This document shows, one piece after another, positions 7,966 to 61,409 of a stretch of DNA of 64,000 nucleotides. The notes under the pieces are model-generated. The model did no database searches and was not told the DNA's origin. It worked only from the letters and a program-made list of their open reading frames with translations. The stretch covers positions 613-64,612 of the forward strand of contig JAJYIV010000002.1 of assembly GCA_021789915.1 (NCBI GenBank), in the 5' to 3' direction. Source of the stretch: a bacterium (GTDB taxonomy: Bacteria; Patescibacteriota; Patescibacteriia; UBA9934; GWF2-40-263). Every line of letters begins with the position of its first letter. Position 1 is the first letter of the stretch. The position numbers and the translations under genes were made by a program.

Positions 7966-8040
7966 GGGTCAGTAGCTCAGTGGTAGAGCCAGGGCCTTTT
8001 AAGCCCGCGGTCGTGGGTTCGATCCCCACCTGACCCACCA
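7966..8040 (+). tRNA. tRNA-Lys (anticodon TTT)
   Basis: GGGTCAG..CTGACCC acceptor, D-arm GCTCAGTGGTAGAGC, anticodon loop CTTTTAA, T-loop TTCGATC, CCA encoded. Confidence 0.92.
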
Positions 8041-8041
8041 G

Positions 8042-8165
8042 AAAACCGCCTAAAGCAGCGATCTATCGGCTCAGGCCTCGCGTGCTCGCTCACCGTACAT
8101 ATCAGTACGGCTCGCTGCGCCCGCTTCGGCCTTCACCGATATCTCATCTGCTTTAGGCGGTTTTT
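8042..8165. repeat. ~124-nt imperfect long hairpin directly 3' of tRNA-Lys
   Basis: Outer arms AAAACCGCCTAAAGCAG / CTGCTTTAGGCGGTTTT are perfect. Inner arms are imperfect around GTACATATCAGTAC. Confidence 0.8.
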
Positions 8166-8402
8166 AAGATGGGATCGAACCGGAAGCCGGAGAATGGTCG
8201 AGTCTTGCAACGGTCTCAGTGCAGAAGCTTGACGGAATCCTCATTCCTGGTATCTTTCGTCCTTGCTCTTTTTATGTTTTCAACGTTTGATTGAGCCATG
8301 AGGCAAGCGTTTTTCCGATCTTTTCGAAGGCCGGCAAGCCGCTTGTCTCATGGAAATGAGTCAGCCGCACCGGGAGTCCCCCGACTGCGAAACAAAAGGA
8401 GA

Positions 8403-9401: not shown

Positions 9402-9439
9402 CTTCGGCGGGGATCGGAGAGTGTTGTAAATCTCCTTTT

Positions 9440-9553
9440 CTCGTCATTGCGAGGAGCTGGTCCCAGTCGTGGCGACGAAGCAATCCTGCAGTTTCCTTCG
9501 AGAACGGAAGGATTGCTTCGCTCCGGCCTCCGGCTTTCGCTCGCAATGACGAG
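9440..9553. repeat. Nested palindromic element (GTCATTGCGAG type)
   Basis: Perfect 14-bp terminal inverted repeat CTCGTCATTGCGAG / CTCGCAATGACGAG, plus an inner inverted repeat CGAAGCAATCC / GGATTGCTTCG. Confidence 0.85.
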
Positions 9554-9659
9554 TTTTGCAACGGTCTCTGATCGAACGCTTGACGCGGCGCTTGACGCTC
9601 CCTTCCCTCCCGTTCAACGTCCTTTATAATGAAGGGATACTCAATCATCCTTTCATCCT

Positions 9660-10892: not shown

Positions 10893-10917
10893 AGCCAACA
10901 GCCGTCAGCCGTCAGGG
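10893..10917. repeat. Heptamer array (GCCGTCA units)
   Basis: AGCCAACAGCCGTCAGCCGTCAGGG. Inverted relative to the array at 11322-11353. Confidence 0.85.
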
Positions 10918-11280
10918 ATTGGCCTTCGGCCTCGAAGAACACAAGACGTTCAACATACGCAAAACTTCATGCAAGAGACAGTCGGCTCGATCGTAATCGA
11001 GTGAACCGGTTCTCGGAAGCCGCCGAGCGATCGAGAGTTGCGTCTGAAGCTCGGCCGCCGAACCGTAAGCGATCGAGAGGAACCTGGCAAACTCATTGTC
11101 GTAGCCGCGCATCTTCCCTTCCGCGATATTCGATGGAATGGAAACCGCTGCTCGTCTCATTTGGCTTGTTAAACCGAATCGTTCGTCCGTCGGGAAAGAG
11201 TCGGTCAAGAGGTAAATCTCAAGGGAAAGATCCATGGCTTTTTGCCAGACAATGAGATCTTCGTATGGTCCTGTCGACAT
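10912..11280 (-). CDS. Four-helix-bundle protein (23S rRNA intervening-sequence protein family)
   Basis: YEDLIVWQKAMDL...IPSNIAEG...FLSIAYGSAAELQTQL is the family signature. The start could also be at 11292. Confidence 0.8.
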   Translation of the reverse strand: MSTGPYEDLIVWQKAMDLSLEIYLLTDSFPTDERFGLTSQMRRAAVSIPSNIAEGKMRGYDNEFARFLSIAYGSAAELQTQLSIARRLPRTGSLDYDRADCLLHEVLRMLNVLCSSRPKANP

Positions 11281-11321
11281 ATTGGTTCGCATGGTTGGCG
11301 TCAAATACGCGAGACGCTCGT

Positions 11322-11353
11322 GCCTGATGGCTGATGGCTGACGGCTGACGGCC
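11322..11353. repeat. Heptamer array (GCTGAYG units)
   Basis: GCCTGATGGCTGATGGCTGACGGCTGACGGCC. TGA recurs every 7 nt. Confidence 0.9.
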
Positions 11354-12479: not shown

Positions 12480-12510
12480 GAGAACGGAAAGATGCTGAAC
12501 AGGCTCTTGG

Positions 12511-12534
12511 GCGTTGGCTAATGGCGAACGGCTC
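12511..12534. repeat. Degenerate heptamer array
   Basis: GCGTTGGCTAATGGCGAACGGCTC, between the mraY stop and the ftsW start. Confidence 0.6.
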
Positions 12535-12543
12535 ATGACTTTT

Positions 12544-13602
12544 TCAAATCAGCGCGTCCAGCAGGGCAAGGGCGACGCCCAGCGCCGCGGCGACATACGC
12601 GACGACCCACAGGCGCATGACGATTTGCGGCTCCGGCCAGCCGCGCGCTTCCAAATGATGGTGGAACGGCGCGGACAGGAAGAGCTTGCGCTTGAACAGG
12701 CGCCGCCAGGCAAGCTGGAGCAGCACGGACAGCGATTCCAGCACGAACACGAATCCGATCACCGGCAACAGCAGGGCGGCGTTCGTCAGCATGGCGATGA
12801 CGCCCAGCGTGATGCCGAGCGACATGGATCCCGTATCGCCCATGAAGAAACGCGCCGGGTGGATGTTGAACCACAGGAAGGCGAGCAGGCCGCCGATGAC
12901 GGCGGCGCAGAAGACGGCCAAATCGTATTTGCCCTGCGCGAACGCGATCAAGGCGTAGGCGGCATAGGCGGGAAACAGGACGCCGCCGGCCAGGCCGTCC
13001 AGGCCGTCCGTCTCATTGACGGAGAAGGCCGTCGCGATGAGGACGGCCATGAAGACCGGCACGTACCACCAGCCGATGTCGAAGGTGCCGAAGAACGGCA
13101 CGTGCAGGATGCGCCAATCGAGCTTGACCGTGAACCACCAGGCGCCGACGGCGGCGATGGCCGCGTAAATGAGCAGGCGGTGGCGGGCGCGCAATCCGCC
13201 GCCATGCGCGCCGATGCGGCGGATGTTGAAATAATCGTCCACCAGGCCGACCAGCGCCGAGGCGACGAGGGCGCCGAGCGGCAGCAGCGTCTGCGCGCGC
13301 GTCAGGAAAGACAGCCGCGCGAACGCCGAATCCGGCAGCAGCCAGCCGAGCAGCGCGCACAGGAGGATCACGGCGAGCACCGTTCCCCACACGAGCAGCC
13401 CGCCCATGGTGGGCGTGCCCGCCTTCCTGGCATGCAGCCTGGCATAGACCGGCGTCTCTTCCGCCAGACGGATCGATTTGCCCATCTTGTGCGATTCCAG
13501 CCAATGCAGCAGCGCCGGCGCCCACAGGAACGCCAGCAGGAACGTAAGCGAGGCGATGACCAGAAGGCGGATCAGCTGGAAAGACGCGAGAGGGAGAGTC
13601 AT
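12544..13602 (-). CDS. mraY: Phospho-N-acetylmuramoyl-pentapeptide transferase
   Basis: 352 aa. Conserved MraY motifs NxxNxTDGLDGL and HHHxE (APFHHHLE). Confidence 0.95.
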   Translation of the reverse strand: MTLPLASFQLIRLLVIASLTFLLAFLWAPALLHWLESHKMGKSIRLAEETPVYARLHARKAGTPTMGGLLVWGTVLAVILLCALLGWLLPDSAFARLSFLTRAQTLLPLGALVASALVGLVDDYFNIRRIGAHGGGLRARHRLLIYAAIAAVGAWWFTVKLDWRILHVPFFGTFDIGWWYVPVFMAVLIATAFSVNETDGLDGLAGGVLFPAYAAYALIAFAQGKYDLAVFCAAVIGGLLAFLWFNIHPARFFMGDTGSMSLGITLGVIAMLTNAALLLPVIGFVFVLESLSVLLQLAWRRLFKRKLFLSAPFHHHLEARGWPEPQIVMRLWVVAYVAAALGVALALLDALI

Positions 13603-13609
13603 ACACGCT

Positions 13610-13722
13610 GAGACCCCTGAAAAACCGATGGGTGTTCGTTGTCCGCCGGAGGCGGATCCGGCTCTGCCGGAAATGGACTGCGGAACCCGCGAGACGAACA
13701 GGCGCGATTTTGCAGAGGTCTC
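13610..13722. ncRNA. Candidate structured RNA or MITE-like nested-hairpin element, copy X
   Basis: It fills the whole gap between two minus-strand genes. Closing stem GAGACCCCTG/CAGAGGTCTC. Homologous to 24253-24411 with compensatory changes. Confidence 0.35.
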
Positions 13723-14116
13723 ACAGGTTAAGCAGCACCATGAAGGTGGACGCGATGAGCAAGACGGTTTCGACGAACACGGTCAGGCCGAGAAAAAACA
13801 AGGCGATGAGGCGCTCGCGGCGGAAGGCCCAGGCGCCCACGGCGACATTCACCGCAAGGACGGCCAAGCCGAAGGCGGCCGGCGTGAAGAGCCGCCACCA
13901 CGGCCCGAACTGGTCCACGCCGAAATAAACCGTGCCGTGCAGCGGCACGTACATGCCCGGCGTCGCGCGCGGAAAGACTTTCCAAAACGGCAGGAAGGCC
14001 GTGAGCGCGACAAGCAGGAGAGAGACGGCGGTCAACCACCGGTAGGCGCGCGAACGGGCGAACAGATCGCGGAGAGAGGCGGCAGCGGCCCCCGACGCGT
14101 GACGGAGCGCGCGCAT
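13721..14116 (-). CDS. Hypothetical membrane protein
   Basis: 131 aa with 4 hydrophobic segments. Packed 1 nt after the nifU-like stop. Confidence 0.5.
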   Translation of the reverse strand: MRALRHASGAAAASLRDLFARSRAYRWLTAVSLLLVALTAFLPFWKVFPRATPGMYVPLHGTVYFGVDQFGPWWRLFTPAAFGLAVLAVNVAVGAWAFRRERLIALFFLGLTVFVETVLLIASTFMVLLNL

Positions 14117-14761: not shown

Positions 14762-14769
14762 AAAGGAAA

Positions 14770-14800
14770 GCTTTTAGCCATTAGCCTTTAGCCATGAGCC
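14770..14800. repeat. Heptamer array (TTAGCCA units)
   Basis: GCTTTTAGCCATTAGCCTTTAGCCATGAGCC. TAG at offsets 6, 13 and 20 on plus; TAA at 11, 18 and 25 on minus. Confidence 0.9.
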
Positions 14801-14885: not shown

Positions 14886-16211
14886 TTAGAGCCTGTTCAT
14901 CCGGCAGACGAAGCTCTTCAAATACGCCGCCTCGGGGAAATACACGGACAACGGATGATCCGGGCTCTGACGCACGACCTCGAGCACCTGCAGGTCGACG
15001 CCCGCCTGCACCGACGCGCGGCGCAGCAGGAAGACCAAGTCCTCCTCCGGCAGGAAATGCGAACAGCTGGACGTGATGAAGATGCCGCCGTCCTTCACGA
15101 GCTTGAGCGCGGCGCGGTTCAGGAAATGATAGGCCTTCTTCCCTTCCTCGGCGTCCTTCATCGACTTGATGAGCGCCGGCGGATCCATAACGACGACGTC
15201 GAAAGCGCCGGCAACCCCCTCAGACTCCCCCTTGGCAAGGGGGAGATGGTGCGGGTTGGCGAGCCACTGGAAGACGTCCGCTTTCTCCGTCGCGCAGACC
15301 TCGTCGGACAAGCCGGCCGCCGCCGCCTGCGCGCGCAGCGATGCCAGCGCTTCCTCGGATCCGTCGACGTTCAGGACGGATTTCGCCCCGCCGGCGAAAG
15401 CGGCGAAGGACGTGGCACCGGTGTATGAAAAGAGATTCAGAACCGTCTTCCCTTGCGCGAGCGCGGCGACCCGGTCGCGCAGGTCCTTCTGGTCGAGGAA
15501 GAATCCCGTCTTTTGTCCGTGAAGAGGATCGGCGACGCAACGCCGGCCGTGCTCGAGAAATTCGACTTGACCCAATGCGCGTCCTCCCCTTTCCAAGGGG
15601 AGGCTGCCTGCTGGCCGCTTTTCAGCAGGCGGAGGTGTTGCCGGCGTGTGAATTCTGACGACCGCCTCCAGGTTCTCCTCGCGCCGGCTCGGCATGTCGC
15701 TGCGCTCGACGATCGCGCGCGGCTTGAACGTCTCTTCCAGCGCGGCGACGACGTCGTCACGCAGCGCGTCGAGACCGGCGGTTGCGATCTGGCATACGAG
15801 CACGTCGCCGTAGCGGTCGACGACCAAGCCCGGAATCCCGTCGGACTCGCCGAACACGCAGCGGTAGCCGGTCGTGAACTTCTCCCCCTTTTCAAGGGGG
15901 AGACTCTGCTCCAGAGGGGGTCGAGGGCCGTATCCCATCAAAACCCGTTTCTGGTGCGCATCCGCGATCTTGGCCGCCAGCCAGGCGCGGTCGATGACGG
16001 CCTCTTTGAACGCAAACACGCGCACGGCGATGGACGAGCTGGCGGAGTACGTCCCCGTGCCGATGATGCGCCCCTGGCGGTCCGCGACGTGCACGAGGGC
16101 GCCATGCTCGGGTTTCTTCTGACCGTCGGCCAGCGCGCGCGAAAAAATCCACGGATGGCGGAAGCCGACATTGGCCTCCTTCCCTTCTTTGAGCTTCAGG
16201 ACGGGGTACAT
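14886..16211 (-). CDS. Class I SAM-dependent rRNA methyltransferase (RlmI/RlmK-like, PUA plus MTase)
   Basis: Start MYPVLKLKEGKE..FRHPWIF. VLNLFSYTG and VVMDPP motifs. The long 706-aa ORF prefix is R-rich shadow sequence. Confidence 0.75.
   Translation of the reverse strand: MYPVLKLKEGKEANVGFRHPWIFSRALADGQKKPEHGALVHVADRQGRIIGTGTYSASSSIAVRVFAFKEAVIDRAWLAAKIADAHQKRVLMGYGPRPPLEQSLPLEKGEKFTTGYRCVFGESDGIPGLVVDRYGDVLVCQIATAGLDALRDDVVAALEETFKPRAIVERSDMPSRREENLEAVVRIHTPATPPPAEKRPAGSLPLERGGRALGQVEFLEHGRRCVADPLHGQKTGFFLDQKDLRDRVAALAQGKTVLNLFSYTGATSFAAFAGGAKSVLNVDGSEEALASLRAQAAAAGLSDEVCATEKADVFQWLANPHHLPLAKGESEGVAGAFDVVVMDPPALIKSMKDAEEGKKAYHFLNRAALKLVKDGGIFITSSCSHFLPEEDLVFLLRRASVQAGVDLQVLEVVRQSPDHPLSVYFPEAAYLKSFVCRMNRL
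15225..15245. repeat. GC-rich hairpin repeat, in-frame within a CDS
   Basis: CTCCCCCTTGGCAAGGGGGAG, translated as PLAKGE. Confidence 0.85.
15583..15636. repeat. GC-rich double-hairpin repeat, in-frame within a CDS
   Basis: CCTCCCCTTTCCAAGGGGAGGCTGCCTGCTGGCCGCTTTTCAGCAGGCGGAGG. About 50/55 identical to 63803-63857. Confidence 0.9.
15881..15925. repeat. GC-rich hairpin repeat, in-frame within a CDS
   Basis: TCTCCCCCTTTTCAAGGGGGAGA.., translated as SLPLEKGEKF. Confidence 0.85.
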
Positions 16212-24144: not shown

Positions 24145-24153
24145 CCGTTCTCG

Positions 24154-24180
24154 ACGCCTCTCCGCGAGGCGTTTTTCTTT
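24154..24180 (+). terminator. Rho-independent terminator
   Basis: ACGCCTC-TCCGC-GAGGCGT followed by TTTTCTTTT. Confidence 0.7.
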
Positions 24181-24252
24181 TCGGGTTCGAAAAAGCTCCA
24201 ACGGGATCGCCACCGCGGCGGGTATCGCTTTCTTTGGAGCTAAAGAAAGATT

Positions 24253-24411
24253 GAGACCTCTGAAAAACTGATGGATTTTCGTTGTCAGCCAAAGGCTGAT
24301 CAGCCTCTGGCTGAAATGGGCTGCCGAGCCCCGCGAACCCTACTGAAACGTAGGGAGAGCGGGGTCGGCGGGCGCCCATGAAACGAAAAGACGCCGTTTT
24401 GCAGAGGTCTC
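24253..24411. ncRNA. Candidate structured RNA or MITE-like nested-hairpin element, copy Y
   Basis: Perfect closing stem GAGACCTCTG/CAGAGGTCTC. Same hairpin order as copy X, with an extra ~45-nt insertion. Confidence 0.35.
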
Positions 24412-24420
24412 GATTCTTTG

Positions 24421-24469: not shown

Positions 24470-24545
24470 TGGTGGACCTGATGGGAGTCGAACCCACATC
24501 TTATGGTGCTAACTCAGGCGAGGTTACCGTTTCCTCCACAGGCCC
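24470..24545 (-). ncRNA. tRNA-like RNA (tRNA-Ala-like, degenerate anticodon stem)
   Basis: GGGCCTG-TG-GAGG-AAACGGTAA-CCTC..GTGGG-TTCGACT-CCCAT-CAGGTCC-ACCA. G3:U70 is present. The anticodon arm CCTGA/GTTAGCA/CCATA does not pair. Confidence 0.5.
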
Positions 24546-40470: not shown

Positions 40471-41595
40471 TCAGGAGACGAGGGGACGCGCGATCGCGGC
40501 GGCGAGCGCTTCCATCCCCTGCCCCGTCGCCGCGGACACCGGCGCCACGGCCGCGAAGGCCCCCGCGTCGAACGCCGGGCCAAGGCGTCGCCGCCAATCG
40601 GCGCCGGCGGCGTCGATCTTGTTCACCGCGAGCACGCGCGGCGTTTCCGCGGCGCCCAAGCGCTTCAGGATCTCGTCCACCACGCGCAGATGGTCCGCCG
40701 CATGCGCGTCGGCGGCATCCACGACCTGCACGAGCACGTCGGCGTCCGCCGCCTCCGAGAGCGTCGATGCGAACGCGTTCAAGAGCTCGGGCGGCAGATT
40801 TTGGATGAAGCCGATCGTGTCGGAGACGAGCACCTGGCGCGGCGGCTCGTTCTCTTTCCTTGCGACGTACAGCGAGCCAACGCGCGTGTCGAGCGTGGCG
40901 AAGAGCTCGTCGGCCGCATACTCGCGCCGGCGCGTGAGCCGGTTCAGCAGCGACGTCTTGCCGGCGTTCGTGTAGCCGACGAGCGCCGCCGTGGGCAGGC
41001 CCTGCCGCCGACGCCGTTCCTGGCGCGCGCGACGCATCGTCTGATACCGCGCGAGCTTCTCCCCGACCGCTTCGGCGCGCTCGCGCAGGTGCCGGCGCAT
41101 GATCTCCGTGTTCGTCTCGCCCTTGCCGCGCGTACCGGTGCCGCCGCCCTGGCGCGACAATTCCAGGCCCATGCCGTAGATGCGCGGGCCCATGTGCCGG
41201 ATGCCGGCCAACTCGATCTCCAGCCGCGCCTCCGTCGTGCGCGCGTGCTTGGCGAAGATCTTCAAGATGAGATCGAGGCGGTCCCACACCTGGAGGCCGG
41301 CCGGGCGCAGCGCTTCCGAGAGAAGATAGACTTGCCGCGGCTTGAGCCGGTCGTTGATGACCACGAGCGCCGCCCCGAGCCGCTTCCCTTCCTCGGCCAG
41401 CTGCTCGATCTTTCCCGTACCGAGGAATGTCGCCGGATGCGGCGCCGCGCGGCGCTGATGCGTCTTCACGACGACGATGCCGCCGTACGTGCGCACGAGT
41501 TCTTCCAATTCCTGCAGCCGATCCAAACTCTCCGCCTTCGTGAGCCGCGGCGGGATCAGATCGACGAGAATGGTTTTGAGGAGACGGTCGGCCAT
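40471..41595 (-). CDS. hflX: GTPase HflX
   Basis: HflX N-domain followed by G1 GYTNAGKTSL and G3 DTIGF. Confidence 0.9.
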   Translation of the reverse strand: MADRLLKTILVDLIPPRLTKAESLDRLQELEELVRTYGGIVVVKTHQRRAAPHPATFLGTGKIEQLAEEGKRLGAALVVINDRLKPRQVYLLSEALRPAGLQVWDRLDLILKIFAKHARTTEARLEIELAGIRHMGPRIYGMGLELSRQGGGTGTRGKGETNTEIMRRHLRERAEAVGEKLARYQTMRRARQERRRRQGLPTAALVGYTNAGKTSLLNRLTRRREYAADELFATLDTRVGSLYVARKENEPPRQVLVSDTIGFIQNLPPELLNAFASTLSEAADADVLVQVVDAADAHAADHLRVVDEILKRLGAAETPRVLAVNKIDAAGADWRRRLGPAFDAGAFAAVAPVSAATGQGMEALAAAIARPLVS

Positions 41596-59465: not shown

Positions 59466-59495
59466 GCGTTTAGCCATTAGCCGTTAGCCTTTAGC
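59466..59495. repeat. Heptamer array (TTAGCCN units)
   Basis: GCGTTTAGCCATTAGCCGTTAGCCTTTAGC. Confidence 0.9.
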
Positions 59496-59506
59496 ATGTG
59501 TCTCTC

Positions 59507-59530
59507 GCCTGACGGCTGACGGCTAATGGC
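59507..59530. repeat. Heptamer array (GGCTGAC/GGCTAAT), inverted partner
   Basis: GCCTGACGGCTGACGGCTAATGGC. Contains the stop codon of the 59523..61409 ORF. Confidence 0.9.
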
Positions 59531-61409
59531 TTGCAATGACATACAGCGTCTCGATCCCGAACGTCTGCACCGGCACGAACGTAAGGCCGTCGGCCTTCAG
59601 TTTGTCCGTGTTGAGATAGTTCAGATCTTGCGCCGGCAGCGTGATGCCGAAGTAGTACGTCGGCGCGTGCGCGACGAGCGCGGGCAGCAGCGCATAGGTC
59701 CGCGGATCGCGCAGCGGATAGCGCACGGCGCGATCCGGAAAGAAGATTTTGTCGTCGCGGTCAACGACGATGACGGCGTCCGCCGGCGTCAGGCGCATCA
59801 CGGCGTCATGCACGGCGCGCTCTTGCGCCAACACCTGCGCCTCAGCGAACAAGCCGTCCTCCGGGGTCAGGAACGCCGTGCGGAACCCGAGCGCCGCCCA
59901 GGCGACCCAGCCGACGACGAGCACGACGGAGCCGAGGCGCTTCGCACGCGCGGCAAGCTCGTCGAGCGCCACGGCCGCGAGCGGCACCCAGGCGACGAAG
60001 ATCGGCAGCCAGTACCGCACGTGCGAATTGCCGACGGTGATCTGCGTCGGATCCGGATTGTCCGTGAACGTCCAGCTGCCGTACATCAGCACGAGCCAGA
60101 CCGTCACGACGAGGGCGACGAGGAGATAGGGCCAAAAGCAGCTGGCAGCTGGCAGCTGGCAGCTGGGGGAAGAACCGCGACGGCGCTTCGACAAGACGCG
60201 GACGGCCAACAAGATGATGCCGAGCGCCGCCAGGACGAACTCCCACCAGAACATCCTCAAGCCATAGGCGACGAACTGCCGCCAGGCCAGGCGCGGATGG
60301 ATGCCGAAGGGAAAGACGAAGGAGAGCGCTCGCTCCATGGCGCGCCGCCACGCGGGCATGGAGGCTCCGGGGGCGAGCGCTGCCGCAGACGTGGATGATT
60401 CCCCCCCTGCCAAGCCTGTCCTGAGCGAAGTCGAAGGAGGGGGGCTGCCGGCTGACTCCATGACGGCCGGCGGGGGGGTATGCGCCACGGCTATGGCCGG
60501 CACGGAGACGAGATCGCCGCCGGACGCGTCCGCCGCCGCCTGGTAGCCCGTCGTCCACGGCGAACCGTACAGACGCTGGTTCAAAAACGGCATGGGCGAG
60601 AGGACGACGAGGAACCCAAGCACGCCGGCGGCGACGAAGCGGCGATCCAGCTGCCGCCATTGCCAGGCGAAGGCGGCCGCCGCGGGAACGACCAACCACA
60701 CGGCTTCCGACGCGCGGATGAAGAGCGCGAGCCCCAGCAGCGCGCCCGCGGCGAAACCGTCGAGCGCATGGTGCCAGCGCCCCGCGGATGCACGGGAAGC
60801 GCCCGCGAGGATTGCCCCCCTGCCAAGGGGGGCTGCCTGCTGGCCGTCATGCGGCAGGCGGGGGGTATGCGAGGTGGACGTGGTGGAAGCGTTTTGAAAC
60901 GGCCGCGCGAGGAAAAACCAGAAGGCGAAGCCCACGCATGCGAGGAACGGCACATTGGGCATGAGCGAGCGGGCCGTGTAGAACCACCACGCCGGCTGCA
61001 GCGCGAGCAGCGCGCCCGCGATCCATCCCGCGCGCCGGCCGAACAGGCGCCCGAAGACGGCCGCCCACGCGAGCACGCCGAGCGCGGAGAGCAGGATCGG
61101 CACGTACGGGATCGCCCGGGCGCCGAACGCCTTCGCCGCGACGCCGAGCGCGAGCGGCAAGCCGAGGAAGCTCGCGGGAACGAGCGCGCCGCGCGTCGCA
61201 AGCACGCTGCGCGGATGCAGCGCGTCGCCGAGCGCGGCGGCGAGCGGCTCGGGCGCGGACAGCGTCGACGTCGCCGCGTACGCCCCGGCGAAGAACGACA
61301 CGGCCGTTTCGTCCGGCGACACGAAGATGGCTCCCGACGCGCGCAGCGCGAGGGAACCGAGGACGAGCAGCAGGCAGGAAGAGGCGAGCAGCCAGCGGAC
61401 GGGGTTCAT
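59523..61409 (-). CDS. Polytopic membrane protein, probable ArnT/PMT-like glycosyltransferase
   Basis: 628 aa with more than 10 TM segments and a soluble C-terminal domain. Sits in a glycosylation cluster. Two repeat inserts. Confidence 0.5.
   Translation of the reverse strand: MNPVRWLLASSCLLLVLGSLALRASGAIFVSPDETAVSFFAGAYAATSTLSAPEPLAAALGDALHPRSVLATRGALVPASFLGLPLALGVAAKAFGARAIPYVPILLSALGVLAWAAVFGRLFGRRAGWIAGALLALQPAWWFYTARSLMPNVPFLACVGFAFWFFLARPFQNASTTSTSHTPRLPHDGQQAAPLGRGAILAGASRASAGRWHHALDGFAAGALLGLALFIRASEAVWLVVPAAAAFAWQWRQLDRRFVAAGVLGFLVVLSPMPFLNQRLYGSPWTTGYQAAADASGGDLVSVPAIAVAHTPPPAVMESAGSPPPSTSLRTGLAGGESSTSAAALAPGASMPAWRRAMERALSFVFPFGIHPRLAWRQFVAYGLRMFWWEFVLAALGIILLAVRVLSKRRRGSSPSCQLPAASCFWPYLLVALVVTVWLVLMYGSWTFTDNPDPTQITVGNSHVRYWLPIFVAWVPLAAVALDELAARAKRLGSVVLVVGWVAWAALGFRTAFLTPEDGLFAEAQVLAQERAVHDAVMRLTPADAVIVVDRDDKIFFPDRAVRYPLRDPRTYALLPALVAHAPTYYFGITLPAQDLNYLNTDKLKADGLTFVPVQTFGIETLYVIASH
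60399..60485. repeat. Composite GC-rich repeat, in-frame within a CDS
   Basis: TTCCCCCCCTGCCAAG plus CCTGTCCTGAGCGAAGTCGAAGGAGGGGGG plus CTGCCGGC..GCCGGCGGGGGGGTATGCG. Confidence 0.85.
60812..60874. repeat. GC-rich double-hairpin repeat (G6 subfamily), in-frame within a CDS
   Basis: TTGCCCCCCTGCCAAGGGGGGCTGCCTGCTGGCCGTCATGCGGCAGGCGGGGGGTATGCGAGG. Confidence 0.9.

Follow-up and report, generated by a model that had tools for sequence, protein, structure and literature searches.

The IS5-family element ISNme1 of Neisseria meningitidis, whose ends read GAGACCTTTGCAAAA and TTTTGCAAAGGTCTC (PMC4596501 Table 2), is the described system closest in its termini to the repeat family reported here, since its terminal repeat agrees with our GAGACCTCTGCAAAA at 14 of 15 positions (PMC4596501). 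ATR, a proposed MITE derivative of ISNme1, is short, non-coding and multi-copy and is thought to be moved in trans; the comparison with our family covers the ends. The host phylum differs, and the Uhrbacteria DNA examined yielded no transposase resembling that of ISNme1. BrickBuilt and MITEPgRS/MITE464 of Porphyromonas gingivalis are also MITEs with IS5-family ends (GAGACCTTTGCA and TGCAACGGTCTC, the latter being the MITE464 end; PMC4596501 and its Table 2), and a 4-bp duplication, GAAA, has been reported for one BrickBuilt copy (PMC4596501). The P. gingivalis MITEs contain internal tandem direct repeats (minisatellites), whereas the Uhrbacteria family consists of a single long imperfect hairpin.

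The ERIC/IRU and Correia/NEMIS elements share with the Uhrbacteria family a length of 100-200 bp, terminal repeats, target-site duplications and intergenic positions inside operons (PMC2229807), but their duplication and terminal motif is TA instead of a variable 4-mer and their sequences are unrelated. Their transcripts fold into long stem-loops with A-G or U-U mispairs (PMC2229807) and effects on mRNA have been documented for them. Measured against the review of bacterial MITEs in PMC2229807, the Uhrbacteria family shows all the hallmarks save an identified partner transposase. REPINs, which are REP doublets moved by RAYT transposases, likewise form a hairpin of about 100 nt, but they lack target-site duplications and IS5-type ends. 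The REPIN hairpin is conserved. Our literature searches, which covered MITEs, insertion sequences and repeats of CPR bacteria, Uhrbacteria and Patescibacteria, turned up no account of the present family or of any MITE in these organisms.

Two homologous elements in the window

The window analysed here comprises 64,000 nt of contig JAJYIV010000002.1 (assembly GCA_021789915.1, positions 613 to 64,612). It belongs with the Uhrbacteria and related Patescibacteria that carry the family: its MraY and that of MAG GCA_027328745.1 are identical, and Uhrbacteria are its best named relatives. An initial annotation of the window, made from sequence, had described two homologous nested-hairpin elements, X (13610-13722, + strand) and Y (24253-24411, + strand), and every feature that it listed is in place: the closing stems GAGACC(C/T)CTG...CAGAGGTCTC, an A/T-run helix in both elements, the P2 helix (TGTTCGT/ACGAACA in X and TTTTCGTT/AACGAAAA in Y), a pair of tandem hairpins and a common AAATGG(A/G)CTG. 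The proposed homology holds as well, with 77% identity over aligned columns and a single 46-nt gap. The 46-nt segment that is present in Y and absent from X had been read as an extra branch of Y. It exists, but it was not gained by Y: it corresponds to the canonical long hairpin of the family, which X has lost.

X is a degenerate copy of 113 bp. Its left terminal inverted repeat, GAGACCCCTGAAAAA (13610-13624, +), departs from the family consensus by one mismatch, and its right one is TTTTGCAGAGGTCTC (13708-13722, +). Y is a full copy of 159 bp with both terminal repeats intact, which amounts to a canonical 129-bp element plus a 30-nt two-hairpin insert after TTCGTTG; X has this insert and lacks the central hairpin. 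Relative to shuffled sequence, X has fold z-scores of -3.5 (+) and -5.05 (-), and Y reaches about -12 on either strand. Rfam 15 identified only tRNAs when the whole window was scanned at the gathering score, and Y and a canonical copy yielded merely sub-threshold miRNA, snoRNA and sRNA models at E values up to 10; X and Y thus match no Rfam family, in line with the failure of the initial annotation to place them in a known class.

A dispersed non-coding family with IS5-type ends

Scanning species-representative genomes with the pattern GAGACCNCTGNAAAANNGATGG returned at least 50 stretches, about 30 of which are full elements. Nearly all of the stretches lie in MAGs named Candidatus Uhrbacteria, Parcubacteria or Patescibacteria, and two more MAGs are labelled Gammaproteobacteria (label as given). 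The family comprises at least some 33 copies in at least eight Uhrbacteria/Parcubacteria MAGs, plus the window and one metagenome contig, and these copy numbers are lower bounds; MAG JAHFHK01 harbors at least 11 stretches with at least 13 copies. A metagenome scan with a pattern specific to the X/Y subfamily matched one contig (L054), and a broader pattern would yield more copies. No match to the family was detected in a scan of viral contigs.

The canonical element measures about 129 bp (127-130 bp in alignment A3) and has no coding capacity. Stops close the forward-strand frames and, as read from the sequences of the copies, one reverse-strand frame is open across the element for about 43 codons, which is far too short for a transposase. 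Copies range from 113 to 192 bp and no transposase gene lies inside them. The 15-bp terminal inverted repeats GAGACCTCTG(A/C)AAAA, abbreviated as GAGACCNNTGNAAAA, delimit X, Y and about 30 other copies, and the pattern GAGACCNCTGNAAAA is enriched in the window, with 8 matches at up to 2 mismatches against 0.9 expected. These ends are unlike the R''/R' consensus of integron attC sites and the copies are not arrayed, which led us to reject an attC identity.

We derived a covariance model (R1) from 27 copies of other genomes, leaving out X and Y. R1 recovers Y with 94.1 bits (E 6e-20) and X with 62.9 bits (E 3e-12) on the + strand, and scores about 31-32 bits on the - strand of the two elements (32.5 bits for X). 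In what follows, forward designates the strand reading GAGACC..GATGG.

The 30-nt module consists of two 6-bp stems with 3-nt loops. In X (13642-13671, +) it forms TCCGCC-GGA-GGCGGA at 13642-13656 and TCCGGC-TCT-GCCGGA at 13657-13671, and in Y (24285-24314) its hairpins occupy 24285-24299 and 24300-24314. The tandem hairpins are present as the initial annotation listed them, although they turn out to be an insert limited to this lineage and were seen only inside copies of this MITE. Two modules are carried by the 192-bp copy L054:10227-10419, each at a CGTT^GA(A/G)..GG site and in the opposite orientation to that of Y. All eight module hairpins observed are perfectly paired despite their differing sequences, which bears out the compensatory pattern noted between X and Y. 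In its behaviour the module resembles a very small site-specific insertion within the MITE.

Two 37-bp mini-derivatives, L008:4131-4167 and L051:933-969, retain little beyond both ends (for example GAGACCTCTGAAAAAGTGATGGATTTCCAGAGGTCTC) and may be deletion products or excision remnants.

Target-site duplications, an empty site and assembly breaks

The initial annotation had pointed to target-site duplications and empty sites as ways of examining a MITE origin. Of 34 copies, 14 have exact 4-bp direct repeats at their flanks (p ~1e-21), and 19 have them when up to one mismatch is allowed; mismatched flank pairs match at 0.7% and offset controls at 0. The duplicated 4-mers are AT-rich and follow no consensus. 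Y is flanked by GATT (24249-24252 and 24412-24415, +) and the L054 copy by AAAT, and no duplication is present at the flanks of X.

X occupies the whole gap between two genes, as had been proposed. Along the - strand, a NifU-like gene is followed by the gene for a 131-aa membrane protein (13721-14116), then by X, mraY (12544-13602) and ftsW. X shares its last two bases with the TGA stop (13721-13723, -) of the 131-aa gene, to which they give the GA, and the mraY start codon ATG (13600-13602, -) lies 7 nt beyond the left end of the element. The mraY assignment is supported by Pfam (Glycos_transf_4 and MraY_sig1) and by the alignment of its N-terminus with the MraY of relatives. The gap between the 131-aa gene and mraY spans only 4-15 nt in L055, L058 and L057, whose MraY proteins are 86%, 76% and 80% identical to that of the window, respectively, versus 118 nt with X, and the C-terminus of the 131-aa protein is kept in relatives (..MVLLNL* or ..MVLLNV*). 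The short gap and the preserved C-terminus indicate that X entered at the stop codon in the lineage of the window. X is probably old because it lacks a duplication and has undergone an internal deletion.

At the same junction in L056 (362-458; MraY 82% identical) we observed a 97-nt unrelated palindromic insert, AGGGTGTAGCGTGTAGG...CCTACGCCCTAAACACTACGCCCT. This junction has therefore been struck independently by another hairpin element.

Genome assemblies break at these repeats. Contig L059, from an independent assembly of the species, stops within Y; a second contig, L060, stops 138 nt past the 266-aa gene, which again places its end within Y. The match of MAG contig L001, from another assembly, to the window breaks off exactly at 9417, where a further small element has its edge; from there L001 runs on into a Y-like copy, reflecting either a chimeric join or a repeat-associated rearrangement. 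Assemblers commonly behave in this way at repeats.

At L023:298-458 and L050:1743-1903 there are elements that combine the ends of the family with unrelated interiors. Along with L023:4793-4914 from the same MAGs, they display the IS5-type ends GGGACCTCTGCAAAAG and GGACCCTTTGCAAAATAG. No autonomous element or transposase with the family ends was found in about 460 kb examined, where the only long end pairs were chance pairs or pairs formed by neighbouring MITEs, and an inverted-repeat search of the window revealed no IS. The assignment of the partner as IS5-type is made from end similarity and duplication length.

The dispersed copies, their duplications, the empty site for X and the IS5-type terminal repeats all favor the MITE origin that the initial annotation had offered as a second option. 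We conclude that X and Y are very probably copies of an undescribed non-coding MITE family of Candidatus Uhrbacteria and relatives.

Setting relative to genes and to mraY

The position of X raises the question of a cis-regulatory leader (riboswitch, attenuator or terminator) that would control mraY and the cell-wall operon, as X fills the entire spacer, ends 7 nt before the mraY start and folds at -54.4 kcal/mol in the mRNA sense. The comparative data speak against such a leader, which we regard as highly improbable: the orthologous junction is empty in three relatives and holds an unrelated insert in the fourth (L056), and the other copies flank unrelated genes, which encode an ABC transporter, GGDEF, DUF4012, glycosyltransferase, peptidase M23, DnaJ and ThrRS proteins (Pfam-checked). 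Moreover, Y is upstream of no gene; its two neighbouring genes both point towards it, and it is bracketed by convergent terminator-like hairpins (24153-24173 on the + strand and 24453-24429 on the - strand) that fall outside Y. X contains no intrinsic terminator, nor any promoter-like or terminator-like site, and matches no Rfam family. The suggestion that X is a structured RNA tied to mraY accordingly finds no support.

Gene orientation around the copies was assessed with a codon log-odds gene caller, partly validated by Pfam. Among copies lying between co-directional genes, the mRNA carries the less stable strand in 17 and the opposite strand in 5 (binomial p = 0.017, from a small sample), a bias of 17 to 5 that we report as tentative. 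In the majority orientation class, the upstream stop codon is located within -2 to +8 nt of the element and is often completed by the G or GA of its end. We discarded an asymmetric target motif as the source of the bias, as the duplicated 4-mers show no clear consensus. A role of the end as a Shine-Dalgarno donor (through its AGAGG) was set aside too, since in most cases it lies too far from the start codon. The bias is not what a neutral transposon model would predict, which counts as a point against a MITE origin taken by itself.

Fold, covariation and strand asymmetry

The initial annotation had interpreted double substitutions in the helices of X and Y as the signature of a selected fold. 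This interpretation extends to the family, in which 24 of 48 pairs are compensatory and 96.4% of cells are paired (alignment A3). None of 500 shuffles reached the observed pairing and covariation, and sliding the partners by 1-3 columns lowered the paired fraction to 35-53%. The most conserved positions of the fold are the unpaired or mispaired ones. Three conserved 5'-GA/5'-GA oppositions occupy A3 columns 22-23/112-113, 32-33/102-103 and 53-54/75-76; these tandem G.A columns are conserved in 20-26 of 26 distinct copies per column, with at least 22 at the first two motifs, which are 10 nt apart. A CGGG bulge is conserved in the family as well. A C/D-box-like K-turn was considered and rejected, the snoRNA matches being sub-threshold at best.

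The two strands of the element are not equivalent. When both are folded as RNA, the GATGG strand has the greater stability in 31 of 32 copies, with a mean difference of 15.5 kcal/mol and X as the sole exception. G.U cells outnumber A.C cells by 93 to 11 (68 to 11 once a conserved U.G pair is left out; 26 to 9 by column), although the states are inherited within subfamilies and independent events are therefore fewer than cells. We rejected a mutation bias as the origin of the G.U excess because the C-to-T bias usual on the coding strand would predict the opposite sign. The asymmetry is present in copies whatever their context, from which we infer that it was inherited from, and selected in, the source copies and is not a property of the position of X. 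Such selection would imply that propagation passes through a single-stranded state (RNA or ssDNA), as opposed to a local function at mraY.

X is the one copy of 32 in which the mRNA-sense strand folds better than the GATGG strand (-54.4 vs -50.5 kcal/mol). At its left end, a C at position 7 gives rise to a G.U pair in the mRNA sense. Changes acquired once X had been inserted in a transcribed setting might account for its reversed strand stability.

Since DDE transposons of the cut-and-paste kind work on double-stranded DNA, a MITE origin leaves the strand-specific fold and the conserved G.A mismatches unexplained. One way to accommodate them is a REP/REPIN-type element moved as ssDNA by a RAYT or by an IS200/IS605-type tyrosine transposase, for which a conserved strand-specific hairpin with compensatory changes and an orientation bias relative to genes would be expected features. 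Elements of that type, however, have neither target-site duplications nor terminal inverted repeats, whereas 4-bp duplications are frequent here, and the ends of our family match the IS5 type, begin with GAGACC and bear no GTAG or CGTC tag, so that we judge this explanation very unlikely.

Alternatively, the interior could be a functional single-stranded structure (RNA or ssDNA) on the GATGG strand, with the IS5-type ends serving merely as its vehicle; the three tandem G.A motifs and the CGGG bulge could bind a protein, for mobility or to act on the host. Covarying stems combined with conserved loops and mismatches agree with this idea, as do the excess of G.U over A.C cells and the steadier forward strand. 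The GA/GA dinucleotides are non-complementary between the arms, and symmetric binding to duplex DNA would not conserve them. In addition, a similar core is combined with quite different closing stems at 8042-8164 of the window and at L023:87-207. Conversely, there is no promoter-like site in or beside X or Y, most copies are antisense to the surrounding operon, no Rfam family matches and the G.U events are non-independent. Compensatory changes can furthermore arise without selection through hairpin-templated replication errors (template switching), and long stem-loops with A-G or U-U mispairs are ordinary in bacterial MITEs (PMC2229807). Weighing these observations, we view a functional interior as possible, if on balance unlikely. 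The fuller proposal of a strand-specific structured RNA or ssDNA with three tandem sheared G.A motifs, under selection in at least eight Patescibacteria species, is a doubtful one that we put forward tentatively.

Related elements and other repeats in the window

A third, divergent relative of the family was detected at 8042-8164 on the - strand (R1 64.9 bits, E 8.5e-13). It keeps the family core (GATGAGAT.., GAAGG.. and GAGCCGTAC-loop-GTACGGTGAG) and has a wholly different closing stem, AAAACCGCCTAAAGCAG/CTGCTTTAGGCGGTTTT. It lies 1 nt past the CCA end (8038-8040) of a tRNA-Lys gene and, on the tRNA strand, appears as a long hairpin followed by TTTTT. A variant similar to it, L023:87-207, is positioned 13 nt upstream of a tRNA gene.

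The 152-bp element at 9417-9568 (+) is bounded by the IS5-type ends GAGAGTGTTGTAAAT ... TTTTGCAACGGTCTC and has a palindromic interior unrelated to the family (CTCGTCATTGCGAG... and CTCGTCATTGCGAGG...CTCGCAATGACGAG). GATCG occurs on both of its flanks, the right one being offset by 1 nt. A solitary end-like sequence, TCTTGCAACGGTCTC, is found at 8203-8217 (+), and no partner end was found for it; the MITE464 end is the same as this sequence and as the one at 9554-9568. At 8203-8240 and 9554-9590 alike, exactly 10 nt separate the end-like sequence TTGCAACGGTCTC from a CTTGACG behind it. The common spacing, which extends beyond the terminal repeat, could denote the -35 box of an outward promoter or a longer repeat unit.

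Other repeats were recorded along the way. Heptamer-like runs (GCCGTCA / GCCATTA, TGACGGCTGACGGC) occupy short intergenic spacers, the mraY-ftsW spacer among them, at 10901-10935, 11318-11352, 12502-12533, 14769-14800 and 59472-59531. Two copies of a G+C-rich hairpin (AGACTCCCCCTTGGCAAGGGGGAGA / TCTCCCCCTTTTCAAGGGGGAGACT) lie at 15222-15246 and 15881-15905, inside a span called as a PUA/methyltransferase gene. ARAGORN called tRNA-Ala genes at 24470-24545 and 40523-40616; the tRNA-Ala whose anticodon is AGC, an unusual one, gets no more than 39.8 bits in Rfam, and the 94-nt tRNA-Ala(GGC) is not reported by the Rfam tRNA model at the gathering score.

Proposed mobility and implications

The transposase family and the mechanism of mobility put forward here are inferred from the ends and the duplications. 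An IS5-family DDE transposase, encoded elsewhere, would bind both ends of the element, cut the target with a 4-bp stagger and paste the element in, thereby duplicating an AT-rich 4-bp target, and most insertions would fall in the few bases between genes. Y would represent a young intact copy, inserted between two convergent terminator-like hairpins and still marked by its GATT duplication. X would be an old copy, inserted at the stop codon of the 131-aa gene; two bases of its end (GA) now complete the TGA, and mraY was pushed 118 nt away from a gene that it nearly touches in relatives. X has since lost its central hairpin, and no duplication remains. The interior is a long imperfect, strand-specific hairpin whose pairing is upheld by compensatory changes.

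Mobile DNA is little documented in the reduced (~1 Mb) genomes of CPR bacteria. The family is found on stop codons and within a few bases of the start codons of essential genes (mraY, dnaJ, thrS), and such insertion sites show that small transposons are tolerated in these genomes and reshape them. Recognition of the family explains MAG assembly breaks at such sites and, for annotation, guards against recording the element as a riboswitch-like leader of the cell-wall operon. Should an RNA or ssDNA step underlie the strand-specific covarying fold, this would be informative about the movement of mini-elements or their use by hosts. Were the interior indeed a selected structure, a DNA transposon would be spreading a functional structured module, as distinct from mere palindromic filler, which would serve mobility or be co-opted by its small-genome hosts.
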